64,000 nt of DNA from Aulosira sp. ZfuVER01 (GCA_034530615.2 JAVRCV020000015.1:1-64000); one strand, 5' to 3'. Positions 2,938 through 62,400 are shown, numbered from the stretch's first letter. The notes: generated from the letters alone by a model not told the origin. Numbers and translations: made by a program.

Positions 2938-3117
2938 GGATGTGCGATCGCTCTCCAATAGATGCAGATGCGATCGCCCATTCCCGCCTAATTCAAATGC
3001 ACAAACCGAACCAATTTGATATTTATCTTGTTATTGATTATTTCTTTTGGGATTGAGGCAGATTAACAGAAATAAATCAGAATTTATTTGTAAAAAAGCT
3101 AATTTTTAACTCTTAAT

Positions 3118-3149
3118 GTAGGGTGTGTTGTCGCGCAGCGCAACGCACC
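3118..3149. repeat. REP-like palindromic repeat (32 bp)
   Basis: GTAGGGTGTGTTGTCGCGCAGCGCAACGCACC is the exact reverse complement of 25871-25902. Confidence 0.8.
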
Positions 3150-3200
3150 ATCAACAATTCAAAGTGCGTTAATCAGAGACTATTTGGAAAAAGCTAATAT

Positions 3201-4469
3201 TTAAGAAATAGGAAGAATAATAAGAAATTCACTTCCTTGAGCAAATTCTGAGTTAAATTTTAATTGTCCGTGATGTTTTTCTTCAATGATTTGACGAGAA
3301 ATAGATAAACCTAAGCCTGTACCTTTACCTAAAGGTTTTGTCGTAAATAATGGCTGAAATAGCTTATGCATCATTTCTTCATTCATACCTATACCGTTAT
3401 CTGCAACAGTAATGAATACCTGTAAATCTACTATTTTTGTAGAAATGCAAATCTGAGGTTGTTTTACTTCTTCTACCGCATCAATTGCATTAGCAATGAC
3501 GTTCATAAATACTTGATTAAGCAACCCTGGATAGCAATGTACCGTCGGTAGTTCACCATACTGCTTGAGCACCTCAATAGCTGGGCGAGTGCCTAAGGCT
3601 TTCAAGCGATGGCGTAAAATTAACAGTGTACTGTCTAAACCTTCATGCAAATCGACAGCAATTTTTGTTGATGTATCACTTCGAGAAAAGTTTCGCAGTG
3701 AAACAGATATATCTGTAATGCGTTTAGAACTTAACTTCATAGAATCCAGTATTTTAAACAAGTCATCAGAAGCAAAATCGATATCAAGTTCTTCTAAAGC
3801 TGCTTGAATTTCTGTTACTGGTTGGGGATAGTATTGTTGATAAAGTTGGATAATGTCTATTAAATCTTTCACATATCCATAAGCAGGAGCAATATTGCTA
3901 GCTATACAGGTAATAGGATTATTAATTTCATGAGCTACTCCTGCAACCAATTCTCCCATTGCTGCAAACTTTTCTTTCTGCACAAGTTGCACTTGGGTTT
4001 TTTGTAAAGCTTCTGTATGTTCAGCTAATTTTTGTTCTAATTGTTGATTCCATTGTTGTTGTTTTTTAGTTAACTGTTGAATTTGTAAATGAATGCGGAC
4101 TCTGGCTAGAACTTCTTCACCTTCAAATGGTTTAGTTATATAATCTACAGCACCTAAAGATAAACCTTTGACTTTGCTAGCAATATCAGCCGCAGCTGTC
4201 ATAAAAATCACAGGAATATGATAAGTTTTAGGATTGTTTTTGAGTCTGTGACAAGTTTCAAATCCATCAATTCCTGGCATTTTTACATCAAGTATAATTA
4301 GTCCTGGAAGTTCACCATCTTCTTCTAATAACTCTAAAGCACTTTGCCCATCTTCAGCTATGCAAATTGATAAACCACCATCTGTAAGAATTTTTGCTAG
4401 TACAGCAAGATTTGTGGGATTATCATCAACAATTAAAATGAAGCTGGAATCTTGGGATAAGATTGACAT
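3201..4469 (-). CDS. Response regulator receiver-histidine kinase hybrid (REC-HisKA-HATPase)
   Basis: ILIVDD/LDVKMPGIDG/DYITKP receiver motifs; GVAHEINNP H-box; NAIDA, DNGIG and GTGLGL boxes. Confidence 0.93.
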   Translation of the reverse strand: MSILSQDSSFILIVDDNPTNLAVLAKILTDGGLSICIAEDGQSALELLEEDGELPGLIILDVKMPGIDGFETCHRLKNNPKTYHIPVIFMTAAADIASKVKGLSLGAVDYITKPFEGEEVLARVRIHLQIQQLTKKQQQWNQQLEQKLAEHTEALQKTQVQLVQKEKFAAMGELVAGVAHEINNPITCIASNIAPAYGYVKDLIDIIQLYQQYYPQPVTEIQAALEELDIDFASDDLFKILDSMKLSSKRITDISVSLRNFSRSDTSTKIAVDLHEGLDSTLLILRHRLKALGTRPAIEVLKQYGELPTVHCYPGLLNQVFMNVIANAIDAVEEVKQPQICISTKIVDLQVFITVADNGIGMNEEMMHKLFQPLFTTKPLGKGTGLGLSISRQIIEEKHHGQLKFNSEFAQGSEFLIILPIS

Positions 4470-32069: not shown

Positions 32070-32578
32070 ATATCAAACTGAACTGTCCTGTGTGCGGTTA
32101 TCAAGAAGTTGCAGGTAAAACTTGCCCTAACTGCGATACCGACTTGTCTGTGATTCGGATGCTCCAAGAATTACCCTCTGTAGAAACCCTCGTACAACCA
32201 GTAAAGGTTGCGACTTGGCCAATAGGGATTGCCTTGTTGATGCTAATGATTGGTGTCTGTTTGGGAGCCGGAAGCAGCTTTATCTTCCAACAAACACAGT
32301 TACATACATTAACTGTCTCTGCTCCCCATCCAGTTGCAGCTACTAGCCTTCTTCCAAAACCACCAAATACTCCTGTGGTAGTGAAAAAACCCCCAAAACC
32401 AACTACTTATACTGTCCAATCTGGAGATTATCTCAGTGCGATCGCAGAAAAATTTTGTGGTACAGGAACCTCTTGGGATGTGATGGTTAAAGCTAATCCC
32501 CAACTCAAAGGAAGAGAGAATCATATAGATGTTGGGGAAGTGTTTAAAATTCCCAACTGCAAGGAGCAACCTGGATGA
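32066..32578 (+). CDS. Zinc-ribbon + TM + LysM domain protein
   Basis: CPVC...CPNC, hydrophobic helix, Pro-rich linker, YTVQSGDYLSAIA...ANP...IDVGEVFKIP. Confidence 0.88.
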   Translation: MNIKLNCPVCGYQEVAGKTCPNCDTDLSVIRMLQELPSVETLVQPVKVATWPIGIALLMLMIGVCLGAGSSFIFQQTQLHTLTVSAPHPVAATSLLPKPPNTPVVVKKPPKPTTYTVQSGDYLSAIAEKFCGTGTSWDVMVKANPQLKGRENHIDVGEVFKIPNCKEQPG

Positions 32579-35307
32579 GCATCCTTGATAGTTTCAACAC
32601 TCTCAGTAAGATTTTGTTGGGTGTGGGGATAGTTGATGTCTACAAGCAAGCACCACAAACCAAAGAAGCCCAGCAAAAAGCCGAAAAATTAGCTCAAACC
32701 AAGCATCTACGGGAAGCAGTCAACATTGCTGAAAAGGCTCTCGCTGTTTGGTATAAGAAACCAGGTTTTTGGGAACGTTTGATTCGTCAATTGTTATTGG
32801 GTAATTTATTAGGCAACTTTACCCAGCAATTACACCAATGGCGCAGGCAAGTTTTAGAAGCAGACAAACTGGCTGTTAAAGCTAAAAACCTGCTCAAACA
32901 GGATAATGGCGATCCTTTAGAAACCCAAGCAATTGTAAATGCGATCGCTCTTTATCAAAGCTGTACTCAAATTCTCCATGATGAGCGCATATCGCGAGCA
33001 ATTAACAAGTGTCAACGAGAACTACAAAGGCGGCAACAGTTTCAGATACTAGTAAAAAAAGCACAATCACACGCCGAAAATAGATTCTTTCAAAATGCGA
33101 TCGCAGTTTACCGTGAAGCCGAAGAACTATACTCTACTGAAGCTTTACAACAGGCGATTAACGCTGCTAAATCCCAAGTAGAAACAGAAAAAATCTATTA
33201 CGCTGCTTTCCAAAGAGCGCAACAAGCTCAAAATCAAGGAAAATTACAGAGAGCGATCGCAATTTTAGAAGCTGCTGTGGCTAATTTTCCGCGCTCAGAT
33301 GGACTCGAATTGCTCCAAGAAATACAACTCACAATCAAAGGTAGAGAACAGTTTCGTCAAGGGTTAGCAGCAGAGAAAGCGGGTAATTTTCCAGCATCTG
33401 TATCTTTGTATGAAAATGCTAAATTGCTCTTACCAAACCCAACAGACTGCCAAATCAGGTTAGGAATCGTTGCCATTAAGACTGAGAATTGGGCGATCGC
33501 ATTATCTCATCTCATGAGCTTACCTGGAGAACAAGCTGCTTATCTACGGGGATTTGCCTATGCTAAACAAGAGAATTTACAGCAAGCTCATCGAGAGTGG
33601 CAAGGTCTATCTACTACTGCTTTGATTACCGAACAACGGCAAATTCTTAATAGTCTTGCCCAACGAAAACGTCTTTTATTAATACAGAATATTGAACAAT
33701 TTGTCAATACTGAAAATCTAGATCGCGCTCAAAATGCGAGTCAAGAATTTATCCAAAAGTTCGGTTTAGATCCTTTAGTAGAGGCAAATCTTAAAGAACA
33801 TATTCAGCCATGTATAGCAGTCGAATTATGGCAAAGTGGAGATTGGAAGATTATTACTAATGAACTCGAAAGAATCTGGATTTCGCAGCCTAACATTACC
33901 ACATTACATAATTGGACAGTAGCGACTTATTACTGTTTCCAAAGTGATTTCTCTAACCTCTCTTATTTAATAATTTCCTTATCAACAGCACTAGCAAATT
34001 TAACTAAAGACCCAACCCTCAAAGATGTGCCTTGGTTAGGAAATCAACCGATTGATTTCACATCAATATCTTTAGAATTGAAACGTCGCTTAGAAGCTGC
34101 AATTGATACTTACAAAGATACCGATATTCAAAAATATTTGAATTTTCGAGATCAATATCGCTTGGAATTAGTCGCCCTAAAACTTATGGGTGAGCCGTCC
34201 CAGCAAGGTATGAAAGTAAATGATGTATTTATCACACCAGGCTGTTATCACCATTACATTTCTCTGTGGCGACACATCGTAGTTCATAGTATAGATTCTA
34301 GCCAGCAAATTCTCCGTTCCCTTTACACTTCTTGGGGATTAGCTGTAGCTGCTTGTTTAGAAGGAGATGCTCAAAGAGCAATTCAACTTAAACCTGCAAC
34401 CCAAACTACTAATACTATCGAAATATTTGCCCAAAAATTTGTTGCTTATCATGAAGGCTGCTATCATCTCAATCACAAAAAATGGCGCAATGCAATTACC
34501 TCACTCAAAGAAGCAAAGTCAGAAATTCAAGCTAATAAAGATTGGCAACAAGAAATAGACAGACTTTGTGGATTGCAGCGTCAAGCTATCTCAGAAATTC
34601 CTGAACATTTAGAATTTGCTCAATTTTGGTATGACATCTTAGCTAGTCAACCTGCTAGAAGTTATTTAGCTGAATACAAAGCCGAAAATATTCGCGAGCA
34701 AGTTGCTGATGAAAAGATTACCTTAGATAAAGCTTTAAAAGAACTCCAAGAAATCAAAAAAATTGATGCCCAAAATCCTATCGTACTTGACTTAATTCAA
34801 AGGATTGAATTCCAGCAAGAAATCGAAGCGATCGAGAAATTACTCAAGAGTAACAAATTTGAAGAAGCAGTCAAGCTTGCTAAAAAATCTCACAATCAAC
34901 GGATACGTAATGTTGTAGCCGATATTTGCCTAGATATATTAGCCAAAGGTTTTCAAAACCGGGATTTAGGCTTTGAAGATATTTACAATTTAGGAAAATG
35001 GGCTTACGAACTCTCTCCTGATGCGGAAAATGTTCAAGAAATTTATAAATTTAGTCAAGAACTAAAAGAAATACACGATTTGATGAAATGCGATCGCTTT
35101 GATGAAGCAATTCGTCGCGCCAAATATTCACAACACGAATCAATTCGCCACTATGTTGCGCAGTTCTTTATTATGACCTTAGTTAAAGGTCTTGAAGATA
35201 GAGATTTATCTTTTGAGCTAGTTCAACAATTAGGTCGCTGGGCTTACGAAATTTGTCCCGATGAACCTGCTTTTCAAACAATTTATCACAGCCTGAATAT
35301 TCATTGA
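32575..35307 (+). CDS. Large all-alpha TPR-like protein
   Basis: 910 aa of TPR-like helical pairs; 80-aa tandem duplication at the C-terminus; ATGA overlap with the upstream gene. Confidence 0.8.
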   Translation: MSILDSFNTLSKILLGVGIVDVYKQAPQTKEAQQKAEKLAQTKHLREAVNIAEKALAVWYKKPGFWERLIRQLLLGNLLGNFTQQLHQWRRQVLEADKLAVKAKNLLKQDNGDPLETQAIVNAIALYQSCTQILHDERISRAINKCQRELQRRQQFQILVKKAQSHAENRFFQNAIAVYREAEELYSTEALQQAINAAKSQVETEKIYYAAFQRAQQAQNQGKLQRAIAILEAAVANFPRSDGLELLQEIQLTIKGREQFRQGLAAEKAGNFPASVSLYENAKLLLPNPTDCQIRLGIVAIKTENWAIALSHLMSLPGEQAAYLRGFAYAKQENLQQAHREWQGLSTTALITEQRQILNSLAQRKRLLLIQNIEQFVNTENLDRAQNASQEFIQKFGLDPLVEANLKEHIQPCIAVELWQSGDWKIITNELERIWISQPNITTLHNWTVATYYCFQSDFSNLSYLIISLSTALANLTKDPTLKDVPWLGNQPIDFTSISLELKRRLEAAIDTYKDTDIQKYLNFRDQYRLELVALKLMGEPSQQGMKVNDVFITPGCYHHYISLWRHIVVHSIDSSQQILRSLYTSWGLAVAACLEGDAQRAIQLKPATQTTNTIEIFAQKFVAYHEGCYHLNHKKWRNAITSLKEAKSEIQANKDWQQEIDRLCGLQRQAISEIPEHLEFAQFWYDILASQPARSYLAEYKAENIREQVADEKITLDKALKELQEIKKIDAQNPIVLDLIQRIEFQQEIEAIEKLLKSNKFEEAVKLAKKSHNQRIRNVVADICLDILAKGFQNRDLGFEDIYNLGKWAYELSPDAENVQEIYKFSQELKEIHDLMKCDRFDEAIRRAKYSQHESIRHYVAQFFIMTLVKGLEDRDLSFELVQQLGRWAYEICPDEPAFQTIYHSLNIH

Positions 35308-35320
35308 TCAAAGGTGCATT

Positions 35321-35935
35321 ATGGAACATAATCCTTATGACATTTTAGGTATATCCCCAGCAGCATCTAAAGCTGAAATTACTAAAGCTGTAGCCACCGC
35401 AATGAAGCGTAAGCAATATCCCGTAGATATCATTGCTAAAGCCCAAAAAAGCTTAATGAAGCCAGAAGAACGCATCATAGCCGACTATTTGCGTCCGATA
35501 TTAGCCATTATTAAACGCTTCAAATATAGCGATCTATCGGCTTTGGAGCAACCAGTACCAGAACTCGTCTTACTACCAGAATTCGATCGATTAGAGCAAG
35601 CGATCGCTCAAGCTATCCAACAAGAGCGTGTAGAACGTGAGCCGTTAGCCATGAGCTTATCAGAATTAGTGACTGAAGGCATTACAGCTTGCAAAGAAGG
35701 TCGTTACCCCAAAGCCATCAAATATCTCGAAGATTACTGTCAAGGCTGTACAGACCGCAACACCAAAGATTACATTCAAGCCCAAATGTGGCTAATTCAA
35801 GCCTATCAGCTAGGTGGACAGTTACAAAGAGCGATCGCTCTTTGTCAGCTTTTAAGCAACCACACCCATCCTCAAGTACGAACTTGGGTAACGAAAACTT
35901 TATCTATGCTCTCTAAAGAGGTTTCTCATGTCTGA
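35321..35935 (+). CDS. J-domain-like protein lacking HPD, with C-terminal TPR
   Basis: NPYDILGIS..ASKAEITKA is J-domain helix I/II; HPD replaced by QYP; TPR-like C-terminal half. Confidence 0.75.
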   Translation: MEHNPYDILGISPAASKAEITKAVATAMKRKQYPVDIIAKAQKSLMKPEERIIADYLRPILAIIKRFKYSDLSALEQPVPELVLLPEFDRLEQAIAQAIQQERVEREPLAMSLSELVTEGITACKEGRYPKAIKYLEDYCQGCTDRNTKDYIQAQMWLIQAYQLGGQLQRAIALCQLLSNHTHPQVRTWVTKTLSMLSKEVSHV

Positions 35936-36395
35936 TTCTATTCTGAGCCAAGAGAACCGCGACTTGCTCATCCGAGAATTTAGTAACCTCCAAAAACAAA
36001 ACGTTTCACTCCAACAGACCTTGCGAGAACAGCAAACCCAAACAGCAGCAGATACTGAAGATTTATTCTTGGAACTTTTGGAAGTTGCTGATGCATTAGA
36101 AACTTTGCTGGAATATTTAGAAAAAAATCCGGAACTCAACCAAGAATTTATCCAACGCTTACCCAGATCTGTAGGAGCAGTTCAGCGTAAGTTTCTCAGT
36201 ATACTAAGAAAACGCCAAGTTTTACCTATAGAACTACAAGATACTCAACCAGATTTCAACTTGTGTCGTGTAGTCGATCGAGAAGTCCGAACTGATATAG
36301 AAGACCAAACAATTACTAAAATCGTGCGTCAGGGGTTTCGTTTGAGAGAAAAGATTCTCCGCCCCACAGAGGTAATTACATCTAAATTAGATTAA
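35928..36395 (+). CDS. GrpE-like nucleotide exchange factor
   Basis: LLEVADALE coiled coil and IVRQGFRLREKILRPTEV beta domain typical of GrpE. Confidence 0.85.
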   Translation: MSDSILSQENRDLLIREFSNLQKQNVSLQQTLREQQTQTAADTEDLFLELLEVADALETLLEYLEKNPELNQEFIQRLPRSVGAVQRKFLSILRKRQVLPIELQDTQPDFNLCRVVDREVRTDIEDQTITKIVRQGFRLREKILRPTEVITSKLD

Positions 36396-50513: not shown

Positions 50514-53500
50514 ATGTTAGTACTATCAGATACTGTATCTCCTATACTTGGTCATCGCATTACTGAGCAAATATATTCAGGTCAAAAAACCTTAGTTTAT
50601 CGGGCTATTAGAGAAAAAGACCAGCAATCAGTTATTTTAAAACTGATGCGCAATGAAGATCCTAACTTTGCTGAAATTAATCAGTTCCGCAATCAATACA
50701 CAATTACCCAAAATCTTGAAGTTCCGGGAATAGTCAAACTACTAAGCCTAGAAAATTACCATAATAGATATGCTATAGTCATGGAAGATTTTGGGGGGCT
50801 AGCCCTGAATCTCTGGCGCATAGAAGAGCAGCAACAGGGAAAAAATACTGTTTCATTAAGTCAGTTTTTTGATATTGCTATTGAAATTTCTACAACTTTG
50901 GAAGGCTTGCATCGCCATCGCATCATTCACAAAGATATCAAGCCTGCAAACATCCTCATTCATCCCATAACAGGTAAGACTAAAATTATTGATTTTAGCC
51001 TTGCTACTTTATTACCAAAAGAAATTCAATTTCTCACAAATCCTAACGTCTTAGAAGGGACTTTAGCTTATATTTCCCCTGAACAAACAGGACGGATGAA
51101 TCGAGGTATAGACTACCGTACCGACTTTTATTCTTTGGGTGTCACCTTTTTTGAACTCCTGACTGGGCAGTTACCTTTCTGTAGCACTGAACCTATGGAG
51201 TTAGTCTACTCTCACATTGCCAAAGAACCACCAAAAGCCAGCTTGATTAACTCCAATATTCCTACAATTGTATCTGATATTATCAGCAAACTGATGGCTA
51301 AAAATGCCGAAGACCGATATCAGAGCGCGCATGGACTCAGATATGATTTGGAAATATGCCGCAACCAATGGCAAGAGAAAGGAAATATTACGAGCTTTGA
51401 ATTAGCAAGCCGGGATATCTCCAACCATTTTGCTATTCCAGAAAAACTTTATGGTCGCCAACGAGAGATTGAAATTTTACTCACTACTTTTGATCGAGTG
51501 ACAAGCGGTAACACAGAAATGATCTTAGTCGCTGGTTACTCAGGAATTGGTAAAACTGCTGTGGTTAATGAAGTCCACAAACCTATTGCAAGACAGCGTA
51601 GTTACTTTATTAAAGGGAAATTCGACCAGTTCCAACGTGAGATACCATTGTCAGGATTGGTGCAAGCTTTGCGGGATTTAATTGGGCAACTACTCTCGGA
51701 AACAGATGCCCAAATTCAACAATGGAAAGCCAAAATTCTATTAGCATTGGGTACGCAATCCCAGGTAATTATTGATGTCATTCCTGAACTAGAAAGAATT
51801 ATTGGTCAACAACCTCCAGTTGCTGAATTAGCTAGTGGTGCTTCTCAAAATCGATTCAATTTATTGTTCCAGAGATTTATTCAGGTTTTTACTACTAAAG
51901 AGCATCCTCTGGTCATCTTTCTAGATGATTTGCAATGGGCAGATACAACTTCCTTAAAAGTTATTCAATTATTAATGAGTGGAACTTCTTCTCGTCTTAC
52001 TAATGAGACAGAGAATATATCTGAGAGTAAAGCGGCTCTGCTAATGATTGGGGCATATAGAGATAATGAGGTATTAAATTCACATCCATTACATTTGACA
52101 CTACAAGAACTTGCTAAAACCGGAGCAGTAATTAATACAATTAGGCTCTCCCCTTTGAGTCAGGTTGATTTAAATCATCTGATTGCTGATACACTGCATA
52201 GTCGAGAAGCTATCGCTGTGCCTCTGACTCAAATGGTTTTTGCCAAAACTAAAGGTAATCCCTTCTTTGCCGCTCAATTTCTCAAGTTATTATATGATGA
52301 CGAACTCATTAAATTAAATTTTGATGCTGGACATTGGCAGTACGATATTAACAAAATTAAAACATTATCTCTTACAGATGATGTAGTAGAATTTATAGGC
52401 ATTCAAATAGAAAAATTGCCCGAAAATACACAAAATGTATTAAAAATTTCTGCTTGTATTGGTAATGAGTTTGACTTAAAAACATTATCAATTGTTAATG
52501 AAAAATCTTTAATAGATACTGCCTCAGATTTATGGCAAGCATTAATTGAAGGGCTAATTGTACCTCAGAAAGATGGTTATAATCTGGTAGTAGAGGATGA
52601 TAGGCAATTATTAAGTCTTTCAAATCGAGAATCAGAAAATTTATCAATTACCAATTCCCAATTACCCAAATATAAATTTGTACATGACCGAGTTCAGCAA
52701 GCAGCTTATTCTCTAATTTCCCAAGAGCAAATAAAGCAAATACATTTAAGAATAGGACTACTTTTATTAAAAAATATCCCAGTTGCTGAACGAGGAGAAA
52801 AGATATTTGAGTTAGTGAATCAGTTGAATATTGCAGTTGAATTCATCAGCGATCGCCCTAAACTTGATGAGCTAGCCCAAATGAATTTGATTGCTGGGCG
52901 TAAAGCTTTGGTATCAACAGCTTATTCATCTGCGCTTAAGTATTTAACTACGGGAATTGAGCTACTAGCAGATGATAGTTGGGAGACAAATTATGAGCTA
53001 ACTCTAGCTTTGTATGAAATAGCAGTAGAAGCAGCATACTTAGCTGGTGACTTTGAGCAGATGGAGCAATTAGCAGATGTGGTATTAGTAAAAGCGAAAA
53101 CACTCTTAGAAAAAGTCAAAGTCTATGAAGTTAAAATTCAGGCTTATGGAGCGCAGAATCAAATAATAGAAGCAGTCAATATTGCACTAGTAGTTTTGAA
53201 ATTATTTGGAGTAGAGTTTCCAGAAAATCCCAATCAGTCAGATGTCCAGCTTGAAATGGAGAAAATAACTTTAAGTCTAGCTAATCGATGCGTTGGAGAC
53301 TTAATCAATCTACCAGAAATGGAAGATGTCAAAGTACTAGCAGTCATGCGTATTCTATCCAGTATCATTGTTTATGCTAGTCAAGCTTTTCCTGAGCTTT
53401 TTCCATTAATTGTTTTGAAACAAGTAAACTTATCGCTCGAATATGGTAATGCTTCCTTATCTGCTTTTAGTTATGTTGTTTATGGGTTATTCCTCTGTGG

Positions 53501-56132
53501 ATTATTAGAAGATATTGAATCTAGCTATCAATTTGGTAAATTAGCTGAAAGTCTTGTAACTAAGTTCCAAGATAAAAAAATTACGGCTAAAGTTATCCAA
53601 GCATTTAATGCTCATATTAAGCATGGAAAAGAGCATATCAAAGAACTAACAGAGCCTTTTTTAGAAGCTTACTCTGCCGGACTAGAAACTGGAGATTTAG
53701 AATTTGCAGTATATTCTATTAATGCCTATTGCTATGCTTCATTTTTTATGGGAAGAGAACTGACAACACTACAACAGGAAATGGCAGTATACAGTAATGC
53801 CATAAGCCATTTGAAGCAAGAAATGGTATTGCAATGGAATCAAATATATCACCAAACAGTGCTAAATTTGCTGAAAAATTTTGACAGTCCTTGCAATTTA
53901 ATTGGTGAAGCTTATGATGAAGTAACAAAACTACCTATTCACCTTACAGCTAATGATGGTATAGCACTTTTACGCTTATATATAAGCAAGCTTCATCTGT
54001 GTTATTTATTTGATAATTACAATGAAGCACTTGACAATGCAAAAAAGGCAGAAAAGTACTTATATGCTGGATTAGGATCTTTATTTATACCTCAATTTTA
54101 TTTTTACGATTCACTAGTAAGGCTGGCAGTATACCCTGATAGCACAGAGTCTGAACAGGAGGATATTCTACTCAAGGTAACAAGTAATCAGGAAAAAATG
54201 CGCCATTATGCAGATCATGCTCCGATGAATTACTTGCATAAATTTTATTTGGTAGAGGCTGAGACACATCGAATTAAAGGTGAATATCTCGAAGCAATAG
54301 AAGTTTACGATCGCCCTATTAGTCTTGCTAAAGAAAACGAGTACATTCATGAAGAAGCACTCGCTTATGAACTGGCTGGTAAGTTCTATCTCAAATGGGG
54401 TAAACAGAGAATTGCCCAACTCTACCTCACTGATGCTTATTATTGCTACGTTCGCTGGGGAGCATTAACCAAAGTTGATGACTTACAAAAACGCTATTCT
54501 CAATTACTGGTTCCCATCACTCAACCAGAAAAACTTAGCCATTCTTGCAGTGAAAAAAACCTACCTGAACTGAGCATACACCTATCTACACTCAGCAATA
54601 AATCTACTCGGGTTACGAATGAAACTGTGATTGGCTCCAACACCAGTATTTCCGATATGTTGGATTTAGCAACTGTTATTAAAGCTTCTCAAGTAGTCTC
54701 AGGAGAAATTGAACTAGAGGCGCTTCTTTCTACTTTAATGGAAGTTGTGATACAGAATGCAGGAGCTTCTAAATGTGTTTTGATATTGGGTGAAGTTAAT
54801 AACTTAGAATTAACTGTTACTGCAATTAGTTCTGGTTCCACTTTTGAAAGTACTCATACAGAATTTTTATCCATTCCCCTAGAATCAAGTAATATCGTTC
54901 CTATTTCTTTGATTAATTATGTCAAACGTACTCAAGAAATATTAGTAATTGATGACGTTAAAGCTCAAGCTTCTTTTACATTAGATACCTATATTACCCG
55001 TGAGGAACCAAAGAGCATATTATGTATCCCCATGCTGAATCAAGGTAAATTGCTAGGGCTGATTTATCTCGAAAATAATTTAACTACGGGAGCATTTACA
55101 CGCGATCGCCTAGAAGTACTTAAACTCTTAACTGCCCAAGCATCAATCTCTCTAGAAAATGCCATGCTCTACAAAAATTTGGCTAAAGCTAATGAGCGCT
55201 TGGAGGAATACAGCCATGTACTAGAGGAAAGAGTGGTAGTCAGAACAGCAGAAATTAATGAAAAAAATAAACATCTGCAAGCAGCACTAGAGGAATTACA
55301 AAGTACTCAAAGTCAATTAATCCAAAGTGAAAAAATGTCTTCTTTAGGGCAAATGGTAGCAGGAATTGCTCATGAAATTAATAACCCAATCAACTTTATT
55401 CATGGCAATATTGCCCACGCAAGTAACTATGTTCAAGACTTGCTAGATTTGATTAATATTTATCAGCAAGAATATCCCCATCCCTCGGCTTTAGTAGAGG
55501 AAAAAATTCAGGATATAGATGTAGAATTCCTGACAGAAGACCTACCAAGGGTTCTCGATTCTATGAAGCTGGGAAGTTCCCGTATCCGGAATATTATCCT
55601 GAGCTTACGTAACTTCTCTCGTCTAGATGAATCGGAAATGAAGCCTGTAAATATTCATGAGGGAATTGACAGTACCTTAATGATTTTGCAGCATCGACTC
55701 AAGGAAAAGAATGACCGTCCAGAAATTACAGTTATCAAAGAATACGCAAATCTGCCAAATATTAGTTGCTATGCTGGTCAACTCAACCAGGTGTTTATGA
55801 ATATCTTAAGTAATGCGATCGATGCTTTAGAGGAGTACAAGCATGAAGAAGATTCTCCAATTGAAAATCCTCAGATTCGCATTCGCACTGAACTAGGAGA
55901 AGCAAACACCCTGAAGATTCGGATTTCTGATAACGGTCATGGTATGACTGCACAGGTACAGCAGAAAATATTTGATCCATTTTTTACTACTAAGCCAGTA
56001 GGAAGCGGTACGGGGTTGGGTTTGTCAATTAGCTATCAAGTAGTGGTAGATAAACACAAAGGTCAGTTAAGCTGTGATTCAACTCCTGGAAAAGGGACTG
56101 AGTTTGTAATTGAAATTCCCATGCAACAGTGA
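50514..56132 (+). CDS. Multidomain Ser/Thr kinase-AAA ATPase-GAF-histidine kinase (HstK/Pkn type)
   Basis: HKDIKPANI, GTLAYISPEQTGR, GYSGIGKT, LDDLQWAD, GAF, AHEINNP, GTGLGL. Confidence 0.95.
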   Translation: MLVLSDTVSPILGHRITEQIYSGQKTLVYRAIREKDQQSVILKLMRNEDPNFAEINQFRNQYTITQNLEVPGIVKLLSLENYHNRYAIVMEDFGGLALNLWRIEEQQQGKNTVSLSQFFDIAIEISTTLEGLHRHRIIHKDIKPANILIHPITGKTKIIDFSLATLLPKEIQFLTNPNVLEGTLAYISPEQTGRMNRGIDYRTDFYSLGVTFFELLTGQLPFCSTEPMELVYSHIAKEPPKASLINSNIPTIVSDIISKLMAKNAEDRYQSAHGLRYDLEICRNQWQEKGNITSFELASRDISNHFAIPEKLYGRQREIEILLTTFDRVTSGNTEMILVAGYSGIGKTAVVNEVHKPIARQRSYFIKGKFDQFQREIPLSGLVQALRDLIGQLLSETDAQIQQWKAKILLALGTQSQVIIDVIPELERIIGQQPPVAELASGASQNRFNLLFQRFIQVFTTKEHPLVIFLDDLQWADTTSLKVIQLLMSGTSSRLTNETENISESKAALLMIGAYRDNEVLNSHPLHLTLQELAKTGAVINTIRLSPLSQVDLNHLIADTLHSREAIAVPLTQMVFAKTKGNPFFAAQFLKLLYDDELIKLNFDAGHWQYDINKIKTLSLTDDVVEFIGIQIEKLPENTQNVLKISACIGNEFDLKTLSIVNEKSLIDTASDLWQALIEGLIVPQKDGYNLVVEDDRQLLSLSNRESENLSITNSQLPKYKFVHDRVQQAAYSLISQEQIKQIHLRIGLLLLKNIPVAERGEKIFELVNQLNIAVEFISDRPKLDELAQMNLIAGRKALVSTAYSSALKYLTTGIELLADDSWETNYELTLALYEIAVEAAYLAGDFEQMEQLADVVLVKAKTLLEKVKVYEVKIQAYGAQNQIIEAVNIALVVLKLFGVEFPENPNQSDVQLEMEKITLSLANRCVGDLINLPEMEDVKVLAVMRILSSIIVYASQAFPELFPLIVLKQVNLSLEYGNASLSAFSYVVYGLFLCGLLEDIESSYQFGKLAESLVTKFQDKKITAKVIQAFNAHIKHGKEHIKELTEPFLEAYSAGLETGDLEFAVYSINAYCYASFFMGRELTTLQQEMAVYSNAISHLKQEMVLQWNQIYHQTVLNLLKNFDSPCNLIGEAYDEVTKLPIHLTANDGIALLRLYISKLHLCYLFDNYNEALDNAKKAEKYLYAGLGSLFIPQFYFYDSLVRLAVYPDSTESEQEDILLKVTSNQEKMRHYADHAPMNYLHKFYLVEAETHRIKGEYLEAIEVYDRPISLAKENEYIHEEALAYELAGKFYLKWGKQRIAQLYLTDAYYCYVRWGALTKVDDLQKRYSQLLVPITQPEKLSHSCSEKNLPELSIHLSTLSNKSTRVTNETVIGSNTSISDMLDLATVIKASQVVSGEIELEALLSTLMEVVIQNAGASKCVLILGEVNNLELTVTAISSGSTFESTHTEFLSIPLESSNIVPISLINYVKRTQEILVIDDVKAQASFTLDTYITREEPKSILCIPMLNQGKLLGLIYLENNLTTGAFTRDRLEVLKLLTAQASISLENAMLYKNLAKANERLEEYSHVLEERVVVRTAEINEKNKHLQAALEELQSTQSQLIQSEKMSSLGQMVAGIAHEINNPINFIHGNIAHASNYVQDLLDLINIYQQEYPHPSALVEEKIQDIDVEFLTEDLPRVLDSMKLGSSRIRNIILSLRNFSRLDESEMKPVNIHEGIDSTLMILQHRLKEKNDRPEITVIKEYANLPNISCYAGQLNQVFMNILSNAIDALEEYKHEEDSPIENPQIRIRTELGEANTLKIRISDNGHGMTAQVQQKIFDPFFTTKPVGSGTGLGLSISYQVVVDKHKGQLSCDSTPGKGTEFVIEIPMQQ

Positions 56133-56337
56133 GATCACGAGTAGAATTATTGCAAAAATCGCAATAGGAAGAAAAGGAACCACAGATAAACGCCGATATT
56201 TATCTGTGTTTATCTGTGGTTTGATATCCAAAAAATCGACTTATGCAAGAGGTCTAATGACAAATGAAAAATGACTCTTTCCAGTCAGAGGGGGGGAATC
56301 AGAATTTCCTTTCGCCTCCCGCCCTCTGCCTTTTTTG

Positions 56338-57930
56338 CTAACAATGAGCTATTGCAAGTTTCTTTGTTGTATGCAAATTTTTGATATAGGCATAATGGGA
56401 AGGTAACTCACTTAATAGGTCTGCTGTTTTGATCTGTACAGAATTAAAAATCGTCTCTGCCTTTTCTAAGGAATGCTTTTTGTGATTTAAGATAGGCAAG
56501 ATTGCATCAGGTAAGTAATTCATTCCTGTTAAGATTGCCATGTAATTACTATTAGTCCAGAATCTGTCAAAGCCTGCATCAAAGACTTGGTTATATCCAA
56601 ACTCGTCTGTATAGGGAATATTAATCGGGGCCCCAGCCTTATAGACATTTAAGAGAGCCTGCAATGATTGAGGAATTTTGAGATCGAACTTATTCGCCTT
56701 CCAGAATGACGTGTCTTCTCTAGAGGTGGTGCAATAGTGCAAGACGATAAAATCTCTGACATCATCAATCATGTAAGCAATTCTTTCATTGAACTTGTCT
56801 CGCAAATTAGGACTCATGCTCTTGTCAGGGAAATACCTCAGCAATTGCTTCAAAGCTGCGTAAATAAAGTAGATTCCTGTTGACTCTAACGGTTCGATAA
56901 ACCCACTAGCAAGTCCTAAACTGACGCAGTTCTTGACCCAGGAACGCTCAGTTCTGCCTACTCTCATTTTGAGATGCTTAACTTCAATGTCTTTATCTTC
57001 AATCCCATGAAATGCTCTAAACTCTTGTTCAGCTGATTCTGGGGTTTGGAATTTTTGTGAGTAGACATAGCCTGTACCTAGTCGTTCATACAGCGGAATT
57101 TCCCATACCCACCCGGAACTGAGAGCTGTTGCTGTTGTGTAAGGTCTAAAGTTATCGTCGTTGTCGTTGGTCGGGATTGGCACCGCAACAGCGCGATCGC
57201 ATAGTAAACTCTCTGAATAGGATAAGAACGGCTCTTTTAGAGCTTCATTAATTAGCAGACCGCGAAAACCTGAACAGTCTAAATATAAATCTGCTGTGTA
57301 ACTATCGCCTTTTTGGGTTTTTAAAGAGCTAATGGCACCTGTATTGTCTAGAACTACATCGCTAACTTGATCGATGACACGCACAACTCCTCGTTCGATA
57401 GCCCATTTGGTCAAGAATTCAGCAACCATACTGGCATCAAAATGATATGCATAGTTGGCTCCTACACTTCCATCTAAGAATTTAGGAGATTTGTAATTTT
57501 CGCACAGTACTGAGCTAGGGTAACAGCAATCAGCCATCGAACGTTCATATCCATTTAGGCGTTTTTTCAGCCAGTAATGCGTTAACGGAACACCATCGCA
57601 TTCTTTAGATTCCCCAAAGATGTGATAGAACTTATTATTGTTATTGCTAAATGGTGCATAAGCCCAATTAACATACTTAATGCCTATCTTGAATGTCGCT
57701 TTACATTGTGGCATCCACTCTGATTCGGGAATTTCTAAAAAATCAAAGAAATCTGTGCGGATACTTGGTACAGTTGCTTCCCCTACACCAACTGTGGGAA
57801 TTCGATCCGACTCAATCAAAGTAATAGCAACACTTCCTTGCAGTGCTTTGATTAAATATGCGGCGGACATCCAACCAGTTGTACCACCACCGACAATAAG
57901 TATGCTTTGTATATTGTTAGCTGAATCCAT
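56338..57930 (-). CDS. Flavin-dependent tryptophan halogenase (PrnA/RebH/Thal-like)
   Basis: GGGTTGW, GVGEAT, ATFKIGI (catalytic Lys), AYHFDA, WVWEIP, FIEPLESTGI, FWTNSNY. Confidence 0.93.
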   Translation of the reverse strand: MDSANNIQSILIVGGGTTGWMSAAYLIKALQGSVAITLIESDRIPTVGVGEATVPSIRTDFFDFLEIPESEWMPQCKATFKIGIKYVNWAYAPFSNNNNKFYHIFGESKECDGVPLTHYWLKKRLNGYERSMADCCYPSSVLCENYKSPKFLDGSVGANYAYHFDASMVAEFLTKWAIERGVVRVIDQVSDVVLDNTGAISSLKTQKGDSYTADLYLDCSGFRGLLINEALKEPFLSYSESLLCDRAVAVPIPTNDNDDNFRPYTTATALSSGWVWEIPLYERLGTGYVYSQKFQTPESAEQEFRAFHGIEDKDIEVKHLKMRVGRTERSWVKNCVSLGLASGFIEPLESTGIYFIYAALKQLLRYFPDKSMSPNLRDKFNERIAYMIDDVRDFIVLHYCTTSREDTSFWKANKFDLKIPQSLQALLNVYKAGAPINIPYTDEFGYNQVFDAGFDRFWTNSNYMAILTGMNYLPDAILPILNHKKHSLEKAETIFNSVQIKTADLLSELPSHYAYIKNLHTTKKLAIAHC

Positions 57931-58116
57931 AAAGTTTCTCCTGCAATTCTAATTGTGAATTTTGACAGTTGAATTTTGCTCTCTTGCACTAAATGGCAGC
58001 AAGATAAGCGCTAGTGAGAGAATTTCAATGGTTGCAAAACTTTGAGGAGTCTAAAGAGAATTTAGGACTGGGAGATTGCTCCGACTCCTCCCAATACTAT
58101 TGATTTTCCCAAGCTT

Positions 58117-59667
58117 TTATCGGTAATCGGCAATGCCCACTTCTACGGTGTTACTTATCCAAGAATCATTTGCAGATAATGGCTTTTTAGCCTGTAATTC
58201 TTGCCGCAGGTTCTTGTAGGCTGAGGGACTCAATGGCATCATCATCTCTGCAAACGAACCAGTTTGGCGAAGTTTAGCACCCATGTCACGCATGAGATAG
58301 TCTAAATAGTGAAAACTAAAGGGGAAAAAGCACGTTCCACTATACAAACCTCTTGGCGTTTTAGTCAGTCTCCAGTCCAACTCTGCGTCTATATCCTTGA
58401 GCATCTCTGAGCGTGAAGGTAATTCTAAGTTGCCTTTGACATACTCAATTAGCCACCGAGAGCCAATCTCCGATGATAGAGTCCCAGAAAAAGTACTGTT
58501 GTAGCCAACAAAACCCATCTCAGGAACATCAGGGTGAATGAGATTGCGGTATAGATGAAAGATACCCTGGCGATCGATAATCTGCTGACGATACTGGTCT
58601 TGCAAAAAGGGGATATTCTGGTGGAATCCGGTTGCGAAGATAATTACATCGGCTGATAACTGCTCACCATTTGCCAATTCCACACCACCAGGGACAAACC
58701 TTTCTATGGTCGTCTTTTTAGCACGTATTTTGCCCTGACGCACATATTTATAGAAGTTTTTCGTAGCTATGCTTAAGGGACAGTTGATAAATCCTTCGAT
58801 TGGTTCGTCAGGTAACATCCCACAAGCATCTAAACGTAACTGTAGGCGTAGTAGCATCTCCAAAGTTCGCCAAAAAGCCCAGACTAAAGGCTTACCTACT
58901 GTATGCAACACCTTCTCTACTCCACGAAGTCTGCGGTATGGAAACCAGACTTGCCCCAAGCGCGTTAACATCAAATATTTGATGTTGATGAATCCGAGAA
59001 AGTATCGAGGAATTTTCCAAGACGCTTGACGGAAAACAAGCGTACATTCAGAAGCTTTATCAACCGCGAAAGTTGCTATGTCAGCCGCCGATTTTGCAAA
59101 ACCAACAACGACGACCCGTTTACCTTGGATGAGAGAATCATCATTAATATCAGTGGAATGCAACACCAATCCTCCAGAGTTGATAAACTCTGCCATACCA
59201 GGAAAAGCAAGCACTTTTGGAATGTTGCAAGTACCATTGCAGACAAGAATAAAGTCTAATTCATGTTTTTCCTGGCTTGTTGTTCCTTGAGGGTGATTCT
59301 TGTAGCTGACGCTAACAACCCATCCTGATTTTTTCGCGGTGTTCCTTTCGACTTGAGTCACTTCTGCTTGGAAGCGAATCTTCTCTGCAATGCCAAAGTG
59401 TTGTGCGTAGGACTCTAGGTAATTCCGCACCTGCTCGCCTGTGGGAGCTTCTGGATAGAATGCAGGCATGGGATAATCGGAAAAAGCATACATATCACGA
59501 GGGCTTTGGGTGGTTACTCCTGGATAACTTCTCGACTTTTCCCATACACCGCCAAGTCCTTTCTGTTTCTCGAATACTGTTACTTCGTAACCTTCTTCAA
59601 GAAAAGTTTTAGCTGCGACTAAACCGCTGAGACCAGCGCCAATAACGCCAATACGTTGAATATTCAT
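58117..59667 (-). CDS. Class B flavin-containing monooxygenase (FMO-like)
   Basis: GAGLSG, GGVW, G..LHS, GFAKSA and FATGF motifs. Confidence 0.9.
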   Translation of the reverse strand: MNIQRIGVIGAGLSGLVAAKTFLEEGYEVTVFEKQKGLGGVWEKSRSYPGVTTQSPRDMYAFSDYPMPAFYPEAPTGEQVRNYLESYAQHFGIAEKIRFQAEVTQVERNTAKKSGWVVSVSYKNHPQGTTSQEKHELDFILVCNGTCNIPKVLAFPGMAEFINSGGLVLHSTDINDDSLIQGKRVVVVGFAKSAADIATFAVDKASECTLVFRQASWKIPRYFLGFINIKYLMLTRLGQVWFPYRRLRGVEKVLHTVGKPLVWAFWRTLEMLLRLQLRLDACGMLPDEPIEGFINCPLSIATKNFYKYVRQGKIRAKKTTIERFVPGGVELANGEQLSADVIIFATGFHQNIPFLQDQYRQQIIDRQGIFHLYRNLIHPDVPEMGFVGYNSTFSGTLSSEIGSRWLIEYVKGNLELPSRSEMLKDIDAELDWRLTKTPRGLYSGTCFFPFSFHYLDYLMRDMGAKLRQTGSFAEMMMPLSPSAYKNLRQELQAKKPLSANDSWISNTVEVGIADYR

Positions 59668-59699
59668 GTTCTCAATGCGTAAGTCTATATTGTCTTGAT

Positions 59700-60413
59700 T
59701 TAGGCAACTTTTAATGGTTGCTCAATCTGGTAGGTTTTGGCATAAACCAACAGCTCATTTGTCAATTTTGTAAAAACTGTAAATAAGTTTTCGACTAATT
59801 CAAAAGCTTCTTGCCTGTTCACTTCTGATAGTTGTATATCTTGTATAAATTGCTCTATACCAGATGAACCTGTCATGTGTCCCGTTTCAACATCTAAATG
59901 GAAATCTGCAAAATATCTGCATGGTTTTTGAGTAATTACTTTAATTTCTTTACCAATCTCTGCTGCTATTGAAAACATAACATTACCTGTTGATTCTATA
60001 ACTTCAATGACTATCAACTTCTGAATAGGAGTAGCCTGCGAAGTATATTTATACAGTTGATAGTTTAACCAGCGATTATTTTTAGTTTCTTCACCCCAAA
60101 GAAATTTTAATGCATCACTAAATTTCAGCGATTTGTCAAGTTCTAAGTTCTTTATGTCTTCCAAAAACCACAGCCAATGGTGATCGTCTTCATAAGTATG
60201 CTTGTTAATTAGTATTTGCAGAGGCTCGCTAGTTGGTTCTACTCGTAAAAAATATTTGTTCAGTTCTCCAAAATTCATAATGAAATGAGCAGCGCATGGT
60301 GCCCAAGCCAGCCTTTGTTTGGGATCTATGCTTTGGTCTTGCATAAATTTAAATAATGGCAACTGAGCAAATTCCTGCTTTTTGTGTTGAATTAATGCTA
60401 GGACTTCTTTCAT
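59700..60413 (-). CDS. Heme-oxygenase-fold diiron enzyme, AetD-like
   Basis: 237 aa; HTYEDDHHWLWFLED, EVIE and HLDVETGH motifs and the MKEVLALIQHKKQEFAQLPLF start match AetD as I recall it. Confidence 0.75.
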   Translation of the reverse strand: MKEVLALIQHKKQEFAQLPLFKFMQDQSIDPKQRLAWAPCAAHFIMNFGELNKYFLRVEPTSEPLQILINKHTYEDDHHWLWFLEDIKNLELDKSLKFSDALKFLWGEETKNNRWLNYQLYKYTSQATPIQKLIVIEVIESTGNVMFSIAAEIGKEIKVITQKPCRYFADFHLDVETGHMTGSSGIEQFIQDIQLSEVNRQEAFELVENLFTVFTKLTNELLVYAKTYQIEQPLKVA

Positions 60414-62050
60414 GATTATTACACCAAATTTCAAAAGTTAATTATGTGAGAAAAACTGACTTTTACAAACATTGTAAAAGTATTGAATGCAGAGATTTCA
60501 TCACCAATCAGTAAATACCTGTTAGTGTTTTAGATACTTTAGATGACAATGCCAGCATTTTTTAATTATTGAATTAATATTAATTCAATAAAATATAGCT
60601 GAATACACAGTTTCTAAGATTGCTTGATAGTACATTAGATGAGACACTCTTAGTTGGCATTACAAAACAGTGGCGATGAAAAAAATATCGTCTTGAATGT
60701 AAAATATTTCTCAATCTAAACCACTATAATTTAACAACCCTATACCCTTTTAAGTCAGCATATTGCAACGCAACTATCGCCAGCCTAAAGACTGTAGTGC
60801 GGAAACGCCAAGAGCATCAATTTCTCAGGAATAAGAGATTAATTTTCTCGTAGTTTTAAGTTAAGCATTCACTCTAGAGAATGCTCTTCCAGAACTTCAA
60901 CATACCTAATTTATCAGCCTAAAAATACTTAAAGCGAGCCTGATGGATTTAATTTGCCCAATCCAACCATCTCACTAAGGCGGGGAGTTACTTAAAAATC
61001 TATTTTCCCCTTACTTCTTTTTCTCCTACAAAGAAAGGCTGATTAATAGAGCTTGATTACACTGAAAGTGCTTAAATTATAGTCTCTAACTTTAATTCAT
61101 CTATAATCACTGAACAAATTCAAGTGATTATAAAAATTTGAATTACAGGAATATAGAACCCATTGTCCTGTAAATAGTCAGCCACAAAAAGATTTGTACA
61201 GCGTGTAAATAATATTTACTGCCACCGTGGTTTGCGTTTAAAGCTATAATTTGATGTTTGCAACACTTTATGTGTGCAACCATTGTTTAATTTTTTATTA
61301 AAAAAAATATCCGTAATTACCCGTAATTACTAAAAATAGTTAGTTCTATAAAAGACATTGCAATAAATTATACAAATTTGTTGTCAGACTGGATATCTTT
61401 TAACCTTTAGGCTTGAAAGTATTGTATATATTTGTTCATATCAAGCTAATATAACGAATTATGCTTAAATTAACTCAGTATTATGTATTATAAATAACAT
61501 TTTTATTAAAATTAGCTTACTAATTGATAATTAATTATAAAATCTACTAATCTAAAACAGTTATTTATATTACTTATCTAATTAAGTCTTATTACGTAAT
61601 TGTTAGGATTTTCTGACATAAGTAATTTAGTACACAGGCGAAATTCAGCGCGGCTTGTGGTAAAAATCACTCATCCAATGTTAAAAGAGGTTCAGTTTGT
61701 ACATAGCTGTTCAAACATACCAGGGCAAGAAAAGCAAAATATCTATTAAATTGCAGATGCATAAATTAACTATCTCTCAAAGGTAATATATTAAACTAGT
61801 AAGCAAATATTATCTTAATATCAATCAAATATATATCTATTATAGGATGACAAACAAGCAAACTTAGTATAAATAAAAACAGTCATAATAAATAATGATG
61901 AATTTCAAAGCGATCGCCTTGAAATTCCTAGACTAGACGGTTGTAACTTAATCAGCATGATGATACCAATGCCGGGATAATGGGCAAACTAAATATGCAA
62001 GAAATTTACTCCATCTTTGCAAAGCAGCTCAAAAGCAAAAATTATGACAA

Positions 62051-62168
62051 TCCCATCAAATTATTGTAGAAAAATATGGTGGATGGAACGCTGAAAGTAA
62101 ATTTATCAATATGGTATGGTTCCGAAGTTAGAATTCCTATTACTATTCAGCAACCAGCCATTGAATAA
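62051..62168 (+). pseudogene. Degenerate remnant of a histidine kinase HATPase C-terminus
   Basis: SHQIIVEKYGG (4-nt TGGA duplication) TLKVN...GSEVRIPI resembles SYQVVVDKHKGQL...GTEFVIEIP of the kinase at 50514-56132. Confidence 0.5.
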
Positions 62169-62400
62169 ATATAAATTTTTCACTAAATATACGTGGATTA
62201 ATTTTTATTACTTAAGTGTAATTCTCTTTGAATTTATAGTGTTTTTTTATCACAAATATAGTTCCGATCAAACATATATTGATTTTAATTCAACATATTT
62301 TCTTCATATTTTACTTTTAAAGCAAAGTTTTAAAAGTAATTTCTTATCAAGAGATACTACCTTCTTATTTGCTAAAGATAAACTATTGTTTTTAATTTAT

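Follow-up and report, generated by a model that had tools for sequence, protein, structure and literature searches.

The 64,000-nucleotide stretch of Aulosira sp. ZfuVER01 DNA analysed here (GCA_034530615.2, JAVRCV020000015.1:1-64000; hereafter the window) carries a compact group of three co-oriented genes, which encode in order a heme-oxygenase-like diiron oxidase (HDO), a class B flavin monooxygenase (FMO) and a flavin-dependent tryptophan halogenase, and which probably constitute a skt-type haloskatole cluster with an exchanged halogenase module. All three open reading frames (ORFs) are intact on the minus strand (Table 1), and their listing bears out the coordinates and layout, with intergenic gaps of 32 and 186 bp, that had been given in an earlier reading of this DNA made without database searches (the sequence-only reading). 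The convergent kinase gene and the AT-rich upstream region described there are likewise seen: the kinase gene, whose product combines Pkinase, AAA_16, GAF, HisKA and HATPase_c domains (Pfam), ends at 56132, and at 60435-62115, upstream of the trio, lie 1681 bp devoid of any ORF of at least 60 aa, with a GC fraction of 0.25-0.34 in the upstream region versus 0.37-0.44 in the three genes.

Table 1. Features of the gene trio and its surroundings in the window, followed by the fourth gene of two related loci
Feature	Position	Strand	Remarks
sktA orthologue (HDO, predicted skatole synthase)	59700..60413	-	237 aa from ATG
Spacer between sktA and the FMO gene	59668..59699	-	32 bp; sktB occupies this place in the other skt loci examined
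Class B flavin monooxygenase, SktC position, subtype C'	58117..59667	-	516 aa; PF00743
Spacer between the FMO and halogenase genes	57931..58116	-	186 bp; without DNA similarity to other skt loci
Flavin-dependent tryptophan halogenase, group A (PrnA/RebH/Thal-like), deviant Trp4	56338..57930	-	530 aa; PF04820
Hairpin in a short dispersed repeat that separates the halogenase and kinase stop codons	56181..56253	.	inverted repeat 56181-56208
AT-rich non-coding region upstream of sktA	60435..62049	-	aligns to L001 and L002
Convergent Ser/Thr-kinase/AAA/GAF/histidine-kinase gene	50514..56132	+	1872 aa; marks the conserved chromosomal site; pathway membership not implied
SDR gene of L002	L002:11204-11968		254 aa, after window-type FMO
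SDR gene of L024	L024:11012-11776		254 aa, after window-type FMO

The identities of the three enzymes, which the sequence-only reading had named as an AetD-like diiron enzyme, a class B FMO and a halogenase of the PrnA/RebH/Thal type, are all correct by Pfam or PDB matches. The HDO, for which no Pfam or NCBIfam family was found, showed the similarity to AetD that had been proposed as a check: in a PDB sequence search it matches the AetD crystal chains at E 6.7e-53 and 183.1 bits, ungapped over residues 1-232, likeness to AetD and to PrnA being expressed here as bit scores rather than percent identity. An alternative TTG start at 60434 would lengthen this protein to 244 aa; counted from the ATG, it is as long as the HDO of the characterised locus discussed below (L010), and this start aligns to AetD residue 1. 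The FMO matches PF00743 (FMO-like) at 5.5e-48 and 164 bits, its best solved relatives being reconstructed mammalian FMOs (~1e-36 to 1e-34). The halogenase matches PF04820 (Trp_halogenase) at 5.1e-162 and 540 bits, against a cut-off of 21 bits, and among solved structures it scores highest with PrnA (611 bits, 1.6e-182), followed by Thal (528 bits) and RebH (525 bits), with the 5-halogenase PyrH far lower at 411 bits.

The published skt cluster

The sequence-only reading did not recognise this trio as described. It has in fact been published as the three-gene skt cluster of Nostoc punctiforme NIES-2108, which encodes SktA (an AetD homologue, 39% identical to AetD), SktB (a flavin-dependent tryptophan halogenase) and SktC (an FMO), and from which both a P450 and a tryptophanase are absent (Adak et al., JACS 2025, PMC11869266). 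SktB produces 5-bromotryptophan, in vitro without a flavin reductase, and SktA converts it to 5-bromoskatole, cyanide (from C2 and the amine nitrogen) and bicarbonate (from C1); SktA also takes unhalogenated tryptophan, yielding skatole, and the authors exclude both a nitrile and an aldehyde as its product (PMC11869266). SktC was insoluble, and a C2-C3 epoxidation toward bromoanaindolone is the authors' suggestion only. In their sequence network the largest cluster has 138 members, mostly from Nostocales, and AetD clusters with no other sequence (PMC11869266). The peculiarity of the window is a different one, which the sequence-only reading missed, namely an exchanged class of halogenase and an altered gene order.

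The diiron enzyme

A scan of genome contigs with the HDO returned 33 related loci at 79-90% identity: 30 from Nostoc, together with a Nostocales strain, an Aulosira metagenome-assembled genome and a 1961-bp contig labelled Acetobacteraceae (L032). Among them is the skt locus itself (L010, on scaffold33.1 of N. punctiforme NIES-2108), which encodes an HDO of 237 aa, a halogenase of 545 aa and an FMO of 517 aa in that order. Across all 237 residues the window HDO and that of L010 are 83% identical, and the two score alike against AetD, at 183.1 and 185.8 bits, respectively. The diiron ligands of AetD (D76, H79, E140, H172, E176 and H179) and its substrate contacts Y167 and F48, as given in the available part of PMC11611611, provide a second yardstick: all six ligands (three His, three carboxylate), Y167 and F48 are kept in the window HDO and in 34/34 other rows of the alignment. 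SktA departs from AetD at T139, T142 and F214, according to the portion of a review that was accessible (PMC13108848), and at these three positions the window HDO has I, T and F. The first of them, T in SktA and I in the window, was considered as a marker and rejected because T, L and I vary there among ordinary skt loci. F214, T142, F44 and F48 of the window HDO are identical to SktA.

The same affiliation emerges from a maximum-likelihood tree of 35 HDO rows (the window, 32 loci, and the more distant L058 and L060, but not the fragments L032, L055 and L059). Here the window HDO falls within the skt clade, which is separated from L058 and L060 at 100/100, and groups with L001 and L002 at 92/88. 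This HDO is the only member of its family in the genome; 247 of the 388 other genomes of the window's taxonomic family have at least one (E <=1e-10). Because of the 83% identity to the SktA locus and the complete ligand set, the enzyme would be expected to form skatole and cyanide. To our knowledge, SktA is the sole known oxygen-dependent, single-enzyme route from tryptophan to skatole, and it is among the few cyanide-forming enzymes.

Chromosomal site and gene order

All 33 loci were compared with the window and L010 proteins, and 32 are assessable, L032 being too short. The 32 share one order, in which an HDO is followed by an SktB-type halogenase (74-100% identical to SktB) and an FMO; the window's order, HDO, FMO, halogenase, without sktB, occurs in none of them. 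Because the HDO of this clade adjoins a halogenase and an FMO in 32/32 related loci, the adjacency of the three enzyme types is not a matter of chance; these types, with a halogenase of the SktB kind, do co-occur in other genomes, for which the sequence-only reading had proposed to look. The SktB-type gene, of about 1.6 kb, stands between HDO and FMO in every assessable locus. When the window is aligned with L002 (Nostoc sp. 106C), similarity breaks off shortly past the stop codon of sktA and sets in again immediately ahead of the FMO start codon, so that the window has only its 32-bp spacer there and no room for sktB.

Is this nevertheless the chromosomal site that the skt loci occupy? Homologues of the convergent kinase, at 70-88% identity, hold the same position in 25/33 of them, and 2.2-2.4 kb of sktA and upstream DNA are about 80% identical to L001 and L002 (79% over 2376 bp between window 59695-62049, that is, sktA plus non-coding sequence, and L002; 80% between 59695-61910 and L001). 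Given the shared kinase and this stretch of conserved DNA, the site is, judging by the alignments, the same.

The FMO adds a further distinction. Its identity to the L010 FMO is 58% over 514 aa, but the FMOs of L002 (89%) and of L024 from Aulosira sp. DedQUE10 (86%) are closer, and these two together with it represent a second subtype, named C' (FMO'). Its FAD motif is GAGLSG at residues 10-15, and the NADPH-site motif reads GFAKSA in the three C' copies versus GFGKSA in 30 other FMO rows. In L002 and L024, the two loci in which a fourth gene was looked for, the position that the halogenase takes in the window is held by a gene for a 254-aa short-chain dehydrogenase/reductase (SDR; PF13561, ~1e-71 to 1e-70). 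A search of the spacer between FMO and kinase in these two loci for a relic of a halogenase of the window's class (group A, see below) found none; that spacer holds the SDR gene. As an observation in its own right, an SDR after the C' FMO would be consistent with the additional oxidation that the skt authors proposed toward an oxindole.

Three architectures are accordingly found at this site: HDO-SktB-FMO (30/32 loci by FMO subtype), HDO-SktB-FMO'-SDR (two loci) and, in the window, HDO-FMO'-group A halogenase. What the window has in common with the skt cluster of NIES-2108 is the three enzyme types, an HDO of 83% identity with all ligands, the FMO family and length, and the site beside the convergent kinase; what sets it apart is the missing sktB, a halogenase of another class after the FMO, the FMO subtype C' and an F217L replacement in the HDO. 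Two published skt features, the SktB-type halogenase and the gene order, are thus absent from the window locus, and the other features tested are present. No description of a skt cluster with a group A halogenase was found in the literature searched, which did not cover the supplement of the skt paper, where variants could be listed.

The comparison with the aet cluster of Aetokthonos hydrillicola, whose AetD is a nitrile synthase (PDB 8ji2, 8twn), turns out differently. The window HDO shares with AetD its fold family, the six ligands, Y167 and F48/F44, and a halogenated tryptophan is the substrate in the aet pathway, as would be expected for the window. It differs in having T142 and F214 where AetD, in the available parts of the sources, has A142 and S214, and in scoring only 183 bits with AetD against 83% identity to the SktA locus; the expected products differ too, a nitrile for AetD and, by prediction, skatole and cyanide for the window HDO. 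None of the 39 window ORFs scanned with Pfam, which do not include the smaller ones, encodes an AetF-type single-component halogenase, a P450 or a tryptophanase, in keeping with the sequence-only reading, which had already concluded that this is not the aet cluster.

The halogenase

The window halogenase is 45% identical to SktB of L010, with a gap of 25 residues, and 44-45% identical to all skt-locus halogenases; at this distance, and with the motifs described next, it is not to be regarded as an SktB orthologue. It is the only PF04820 match in the window's genome. Pfam found no flavin reductase gene among the 39 window ORFs, and in the genome as a whole Flavin_Reduct domains are confined to six matches on other contigs, all within open frames of 586-607 aa.

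Tryptophan halogenases can be sorted by four substrate-binding motifs, Trp1-Trp4, and we followed the scheme of PMC8269204 as far as its available text sets it out. There, every classified 5-halogenase falls in group B1, which has the motifs ATFS and HPF as well as a QxxQ insert, and group A, with the 7- and 6-halogenases, is marked by Trp1 AT(I/V)P, Trp2 HxF, no Trp3 insert and the Trp4 consensus YYxxF(E/D)(A/Y)EF(R/K)NFW(L/T)N(G/S)(N/S)YY (PMC8269204). SktB of L010, with ATFSTI and HPFQR, comes near the group B1 5-halogenase pattern, which agrees with its measured activity. The window halogenase has ATVPSI, HIFGE and YNQVFDAGFDRFWTNSNYM, and lacks the Trp3 insert, which is the layout of group A as that text describes it. 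Of the Trp4 consensus it does not preserve the second Y, the conserved E, the pair (R/K)N or the last Y, so that in place of the YYxxF(E/D)xEF(R/K)NFW..NYY reported for PrnA, RebH and Thal this motif reads YN..AGFDRFWTNSNYM. The enzyme nonetheless agrees with these three in PF04820, in both catalytic residues (Lys and Glu), in H101, F103 and W455 as stacking residues, and in Trp1 and Trp2 of the group A kind. In PrnA numbering, checked against the PDB alignment, K79, E346, H101, F103, Y443, F454, W455 and N459 are kept, and Y444 and E450 are changed to N and G.

These departures are not private to the window. The deviant Trp4 signature is common to the cyanobacterial relatives P0001-P0016 (63-83% identity), and Table 1 of PMC8269204, in the form available, lists no characterised enzyme with this variant. 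Its core, FDRFWTNSNY, recurs in many more distant, uncharacterised sequences. We know of no characterised member of the clade that bears this Trp4 signature. Because the layout is that of group A and Trp4 is off consensus, unlike in any enzyme of that table, halogenation at C7 or C6 rather than C5 can be offered only as a best guess from the motifs.

The halogenase clade in other genomes

Among forty relatives the best halogenase match is only 47-49% identical; in the window's taxonomic family, 8 of the 388 other genomes carry a homologue at 66-80%. An order-level genome search, whose sample contained only 27 genomes of this family, gave a single 45% match. A metagenome scan with the halogenase returned three loci, two of them probably the same records as L054 and L061 (see below) and the third a 2.7-kb contig at 63% identity.

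Four of the loci that carry this clade (L055, L058, L059 and L060) place the halogenase directly downstream of an HDO of the AetD/SktA family that is 40-50% identical to the window HDO; no FMO was found in the fetched parts of the four. The pairs of L055, L058 and L060 resemble the window in the clade of the halogenase (66-80%), in its position directly downstream of such an HDO and in having a small residue at HDO position 217, and differ from it in the low identity of their HDOs, those of L058 and L060 falling outside the skt clade in the HDO tree, and, in the case of L055, in a second, SktB-type halogenase. None of the eight genomes with the halogenase clade appears among the HDO matches of at least 76% in the 388 other family genomes searched, so the combination of a skt-clade HDO with this halogenase clade is unique among the genomes searched.

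The HDO-halogenase pair of L058 and of L060 adjoins a gene related to the large kinase (45-52% identity), so that the halogenase could plausibly have come from such a locus through recombination at a shared site. These kinase homologues lie at L058:5766-8450 and L060:3382-8853; the window and L058 have the kinase gene in convergent orientation, whereas that of L060 is co-directional. The recurrence of a large kinase beside AetD/SktA-family loci across distant genera (45-88%) could be plain synteny or could reflect a regulatory link.

Elsewhere the clade keeps different company. In L055:5-7014, an HDO truncated at the contig end is followed in a row by two halogenases, the first of group A and the second SktB-type, and then by a FAD_binding_4 oxidase and a Methyltransf_33 protein of the histidine-specific type; the presence of two halogenases beside the HDO suggests that its substrate may be a dihalogenated tryptophan, as in the aet pathway. 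In L054 and L056 the halogenase sits within a dedicated tryptophan-biosynthesis operon: L054:2347-17857, like L056, holds a second Trp operon (DAHP synthase, trpE/G, D, C, A and B) along with a FAD synthetase, an ABM monooxygenase and two methyltransferases, and looks like an unassigned cluster for a product derived from halo-tryptophan. L057 has the halogenase beside an amino oxidase, VioE and a glycosyltransferase. The tjipanazole tryptophan halogenase Tjp10 would argue for C5 if it belonged to the clade; L057 is not evidently the tjipanazole cluster. In L061:201-3400 the halogenase gene is split into an N-terminal part (201-878) and a C-terminal part (2321-3400) with a 402-aa ORF without Pfam family between them, probably the result of an insertion. 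The occurrence of the clade in Trp operons and beside an amino oxidase and VioE favours free tryptophan as its substrate.

Residue 217 and the substrate pocket

Seven residues of the window HDO are absent from all 32 other skt rows, and three of these fall at otherwise invariant positions: D63E, A113N and F217L. Position 217 is F in 32/32 other skt HDOs and L in the window; in the four HDOs that stand beside this halogenase clade it is A, S, L and L, and in AetD, by alignment, it is L. Residue 217 lies one helical turn from residue 214, and in AetD S214 is hydrogen-bonded to the C7 bromine of the substrate, as described in the available parts of the two structure papers (PMC10654658, PMC11611611). 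F217L is thus a possible adjustment of the pocket to the position of the halogen. F214 itself was considered as a discriminator of C7 halogenation and rejected, as it is invariant even in the HDOs beside group A halogenases.

Proposed pathway and alternative readings

The observations above can be assembled into a pathway of three steps. First, the group A halogenase would act on free L-tryptophan, on the benzo ring and most likely at C7 or C6. Second, the SktA orthologue would bind the amino-acid end of the product at Fe1, activate O2 and cleave the bond between C-alpha and C-beta, releasing a haloskatole (a halogenated 3-methylindole), cyanide from C2 and the amine nitrogen, and bicarbonate from C1; this chemistry has been demonstrated for SktA of NIES-2108 (PMC11869266) and is expected of the window enzyme from the 83% identity and the ligand set. 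Third, the FMO might oxygenate the haloskatole, perhaps by the C2-C3 epoxidation to a 3-hydroxy-3-methyl-oxindole that the skt authors proposed (PMC11869266), a step that is speculative for every skt cluster. As to origin, the locus may go back to an ancestor with the order sktA-sktB-FMO, in the same place on the chromosome, from which sktB was cleanly lost, and the halogenase would have been gained after the FMO from a Nostocaceae clade that elsewhere is paired with more distant AetD/SktA-family enzymes.

That the locus is a skt-type haloskatole cluster with an exchanged halogenase module we regard as probable. A more ambitious proposal, which we put forward tentatively and hold to be somewhat short of an even chance, is that the module swap re-aims the skatole pathway: 7- or 6-halotryptophan would be delivered to an SktA orthologue with a matching F217L, and an unreported regioisomer of haloskatole or halo-oxindole would be formed along with cyanide.

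Several considerations weigh against the reading of the locus as a skt-type cluster with an exchanged halogenase and the pathway proposed for it. The regiochemistry is uncertain, given that Trp4 (YN for YY, G for E, DR for (K/R)N) has no counterpart among the enzymes of Table 1 of PMC8269204 in its available form, and the motif signals are mixed, since by that source Trp1 (ATVP) is like that of 6-halogenases, whereas Trp2 and the N of NSNY are like those of 7-halogenases. F214, which the window keeps, is read in the accessible portion of the review as fitting a substrate without a C7 halogen (PMC13108848). The role of residue 217 in the pocket follows from helix geometry only, and the parts of both AetD structure papers that were available do not mention this residue (PMC10654658, PMC11611611), so F217L is a lead rather than evidence. 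The long end branch of the window HDO (0.13) was considered as a sign of adaptation and rejected, being equal to the general divergence from L001 and L002, whose flanking genes are equally diverged (kinase 78-88%). Finally, the FMO is only 58% identical to SktC and has an altered NADPH-site motif, and SktC is itself without a demonstrated function.

Alternatively, the product could be the same as that of the canonical skt cluster, if the non-orthologous, group A-like halogenase still acted at C5 to provide for 5-haloskatole. We consider this unlikely. In its favour, the HDO pocket is nearly unchanged (F214, T142, F44 and F48 as in SktA), the Trp4 of the clade is unlike those of the characterised 6- and 7-halogenases in the available text of PMC8269204 and so leaves room for another selectivity, and cyanobacterial pathways that need 5-chlorotryptophan do exist, such as that of the tjipanazoles (PMC7497240, as far as accessible). 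Set against this, all 5-halogenases classified in that text belong to group B1, with ATFS, HPF and QxxQ, and the ATFS and HPF found in SktB are missing from the window enzyme. PDB similarity runs from PrnA to Thal and RebH, with the 5-halogenase PyrH well below, and action at C5 would leave the window-specific F217L unexplained.

The halogenase might instead act late, its substrate being skatole or the product of the FMO and not free tryptophan. Its gene is the last of the three in order, and the equivalents of PrnA Y444 and E450, which we take to hold the amino-acid end of tryptophan, are N and G across the whole clade. Moreover, SktA accepts unhalogenated tryptophan (PMC11869266). Gene order, however, is a weak guide to the order of reactions; the Trp1 and Trp2 motifs, F454, W455 and N459 are kept, and the conserved D-R pair of FDRFW could take over the contacts with the amino-acid end. 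The surroundings of the clade elsewhere, in a Trp-biosynthesis operon (L054, L056) and beside a set of Trp oxidase and VioE genes (L057), speak for free tryptophan as well, and late-stage halogenation seems to us improbable.

The route favoured by the sequence-only reading, in which an AetD-like HDO yields a halogenated indole-3-carbonitrile, or an oxime with the help of the FMO, has very little left in its favour. The window HDO does resemble AetD over its full length, with an identical ligand set and with L217 common to both. Yet it is 83% identical to the HDO of NIES-2108, against 183 bits to AetD, and the product of SktA is skatole with cyanide, neither a nitrile nor an aldehyde; T142 and F214 follow SktA and not AetD in the sources as available, and AetD clusters with no other sequence in the network of PMC11869266.

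A last possibility is that the arrangement is decaying or accidental, the cluster having become inactive after the loss of sktB with the halogenase a mere neighbour, or the order being an artefact of assembly. It was seen in one genome only, and a dispersed repeat adjoins the halogenase. In each of three runs of one study (3/3), however, a single Logan contig spans 56208-60900, both gene junctions included, with zero differences, although these runs are a possible source of the assembly and are not independent support. A run from another study (X4) has low-depth contigs, 90-97% alike, that cover the FMO, some of the 186-bp spacer and the halogenase but leave out 59733-60245, which hints that the junction of FMO and halogenase may be shared with a related strain, no listed record bridging it. 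With three intact ORFs, catalytic residues in place and no terminator-like site between the genes in a promoter and terminator scan, we give decay or artefact hardly any credence, and a skt-type cluster with an exchanged halogenase remains the preferred reading.

Flanking sequence and other features

The sole notable terminator-like site in that scan is the inverted repeat at 56181-56208, a perfect hairpin that is terminator-like on both strands and separates the halogenase gene from the kinase gene. Around it, in the bin 56142-56312, the summed contig depth rises about 8-fold, and 56150-56260 is matched by numerous unrelated contigs from those runs. Promoter-like sites are fewer than by chance (13 observed, 20.1 in shuffles), and the 186-bp spacer contains a single weak promoter-like match at 58028-58001.

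Upstream of sktA, the region 60435-62049 presumably contains promoter or regulatory sequence. These ~1.6 kb of non-coding DNA, about 80% identical to L001 and L002, are unusually well conserved for a spacer, and because of this conservation they may harbour regulatory elements or an unannotated RNA. An Rfam scan of 55900-62300 at E <=1 gave two chance-level matches only, and in 60435-62049 none better than E 0.8.

Farther away in the window, at 29877-36395, lies a co-directional group of genes for an Hsp70-like protein, a LysM protein, a 910-aa and a 204-aa protein without Pfam family, and GrpE, which is unrelated to the skt-type trio.

Implications

The locus adds a new architecture for a known enzyme trio and a known type of chemistry, and not biology of a new kind. 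Modules are exchanged at the site that follows sktA, a point that should be useful to anyone mining such clusters. As a natural variant in which the SktA/FMO framework is combined with another halogenase class, the locus offers a comparison for the tolerance of SktA to halogen position and could serve to test whether residue 217 tunes that tolerance. It may also lead to a new metabolite derived from haloskatole in a Nostoc strain. If the pathway is indeed re-aimed as proposed, residue 217 would be a natural handle on the position of the substrate halogen across the AetD/SktA family.

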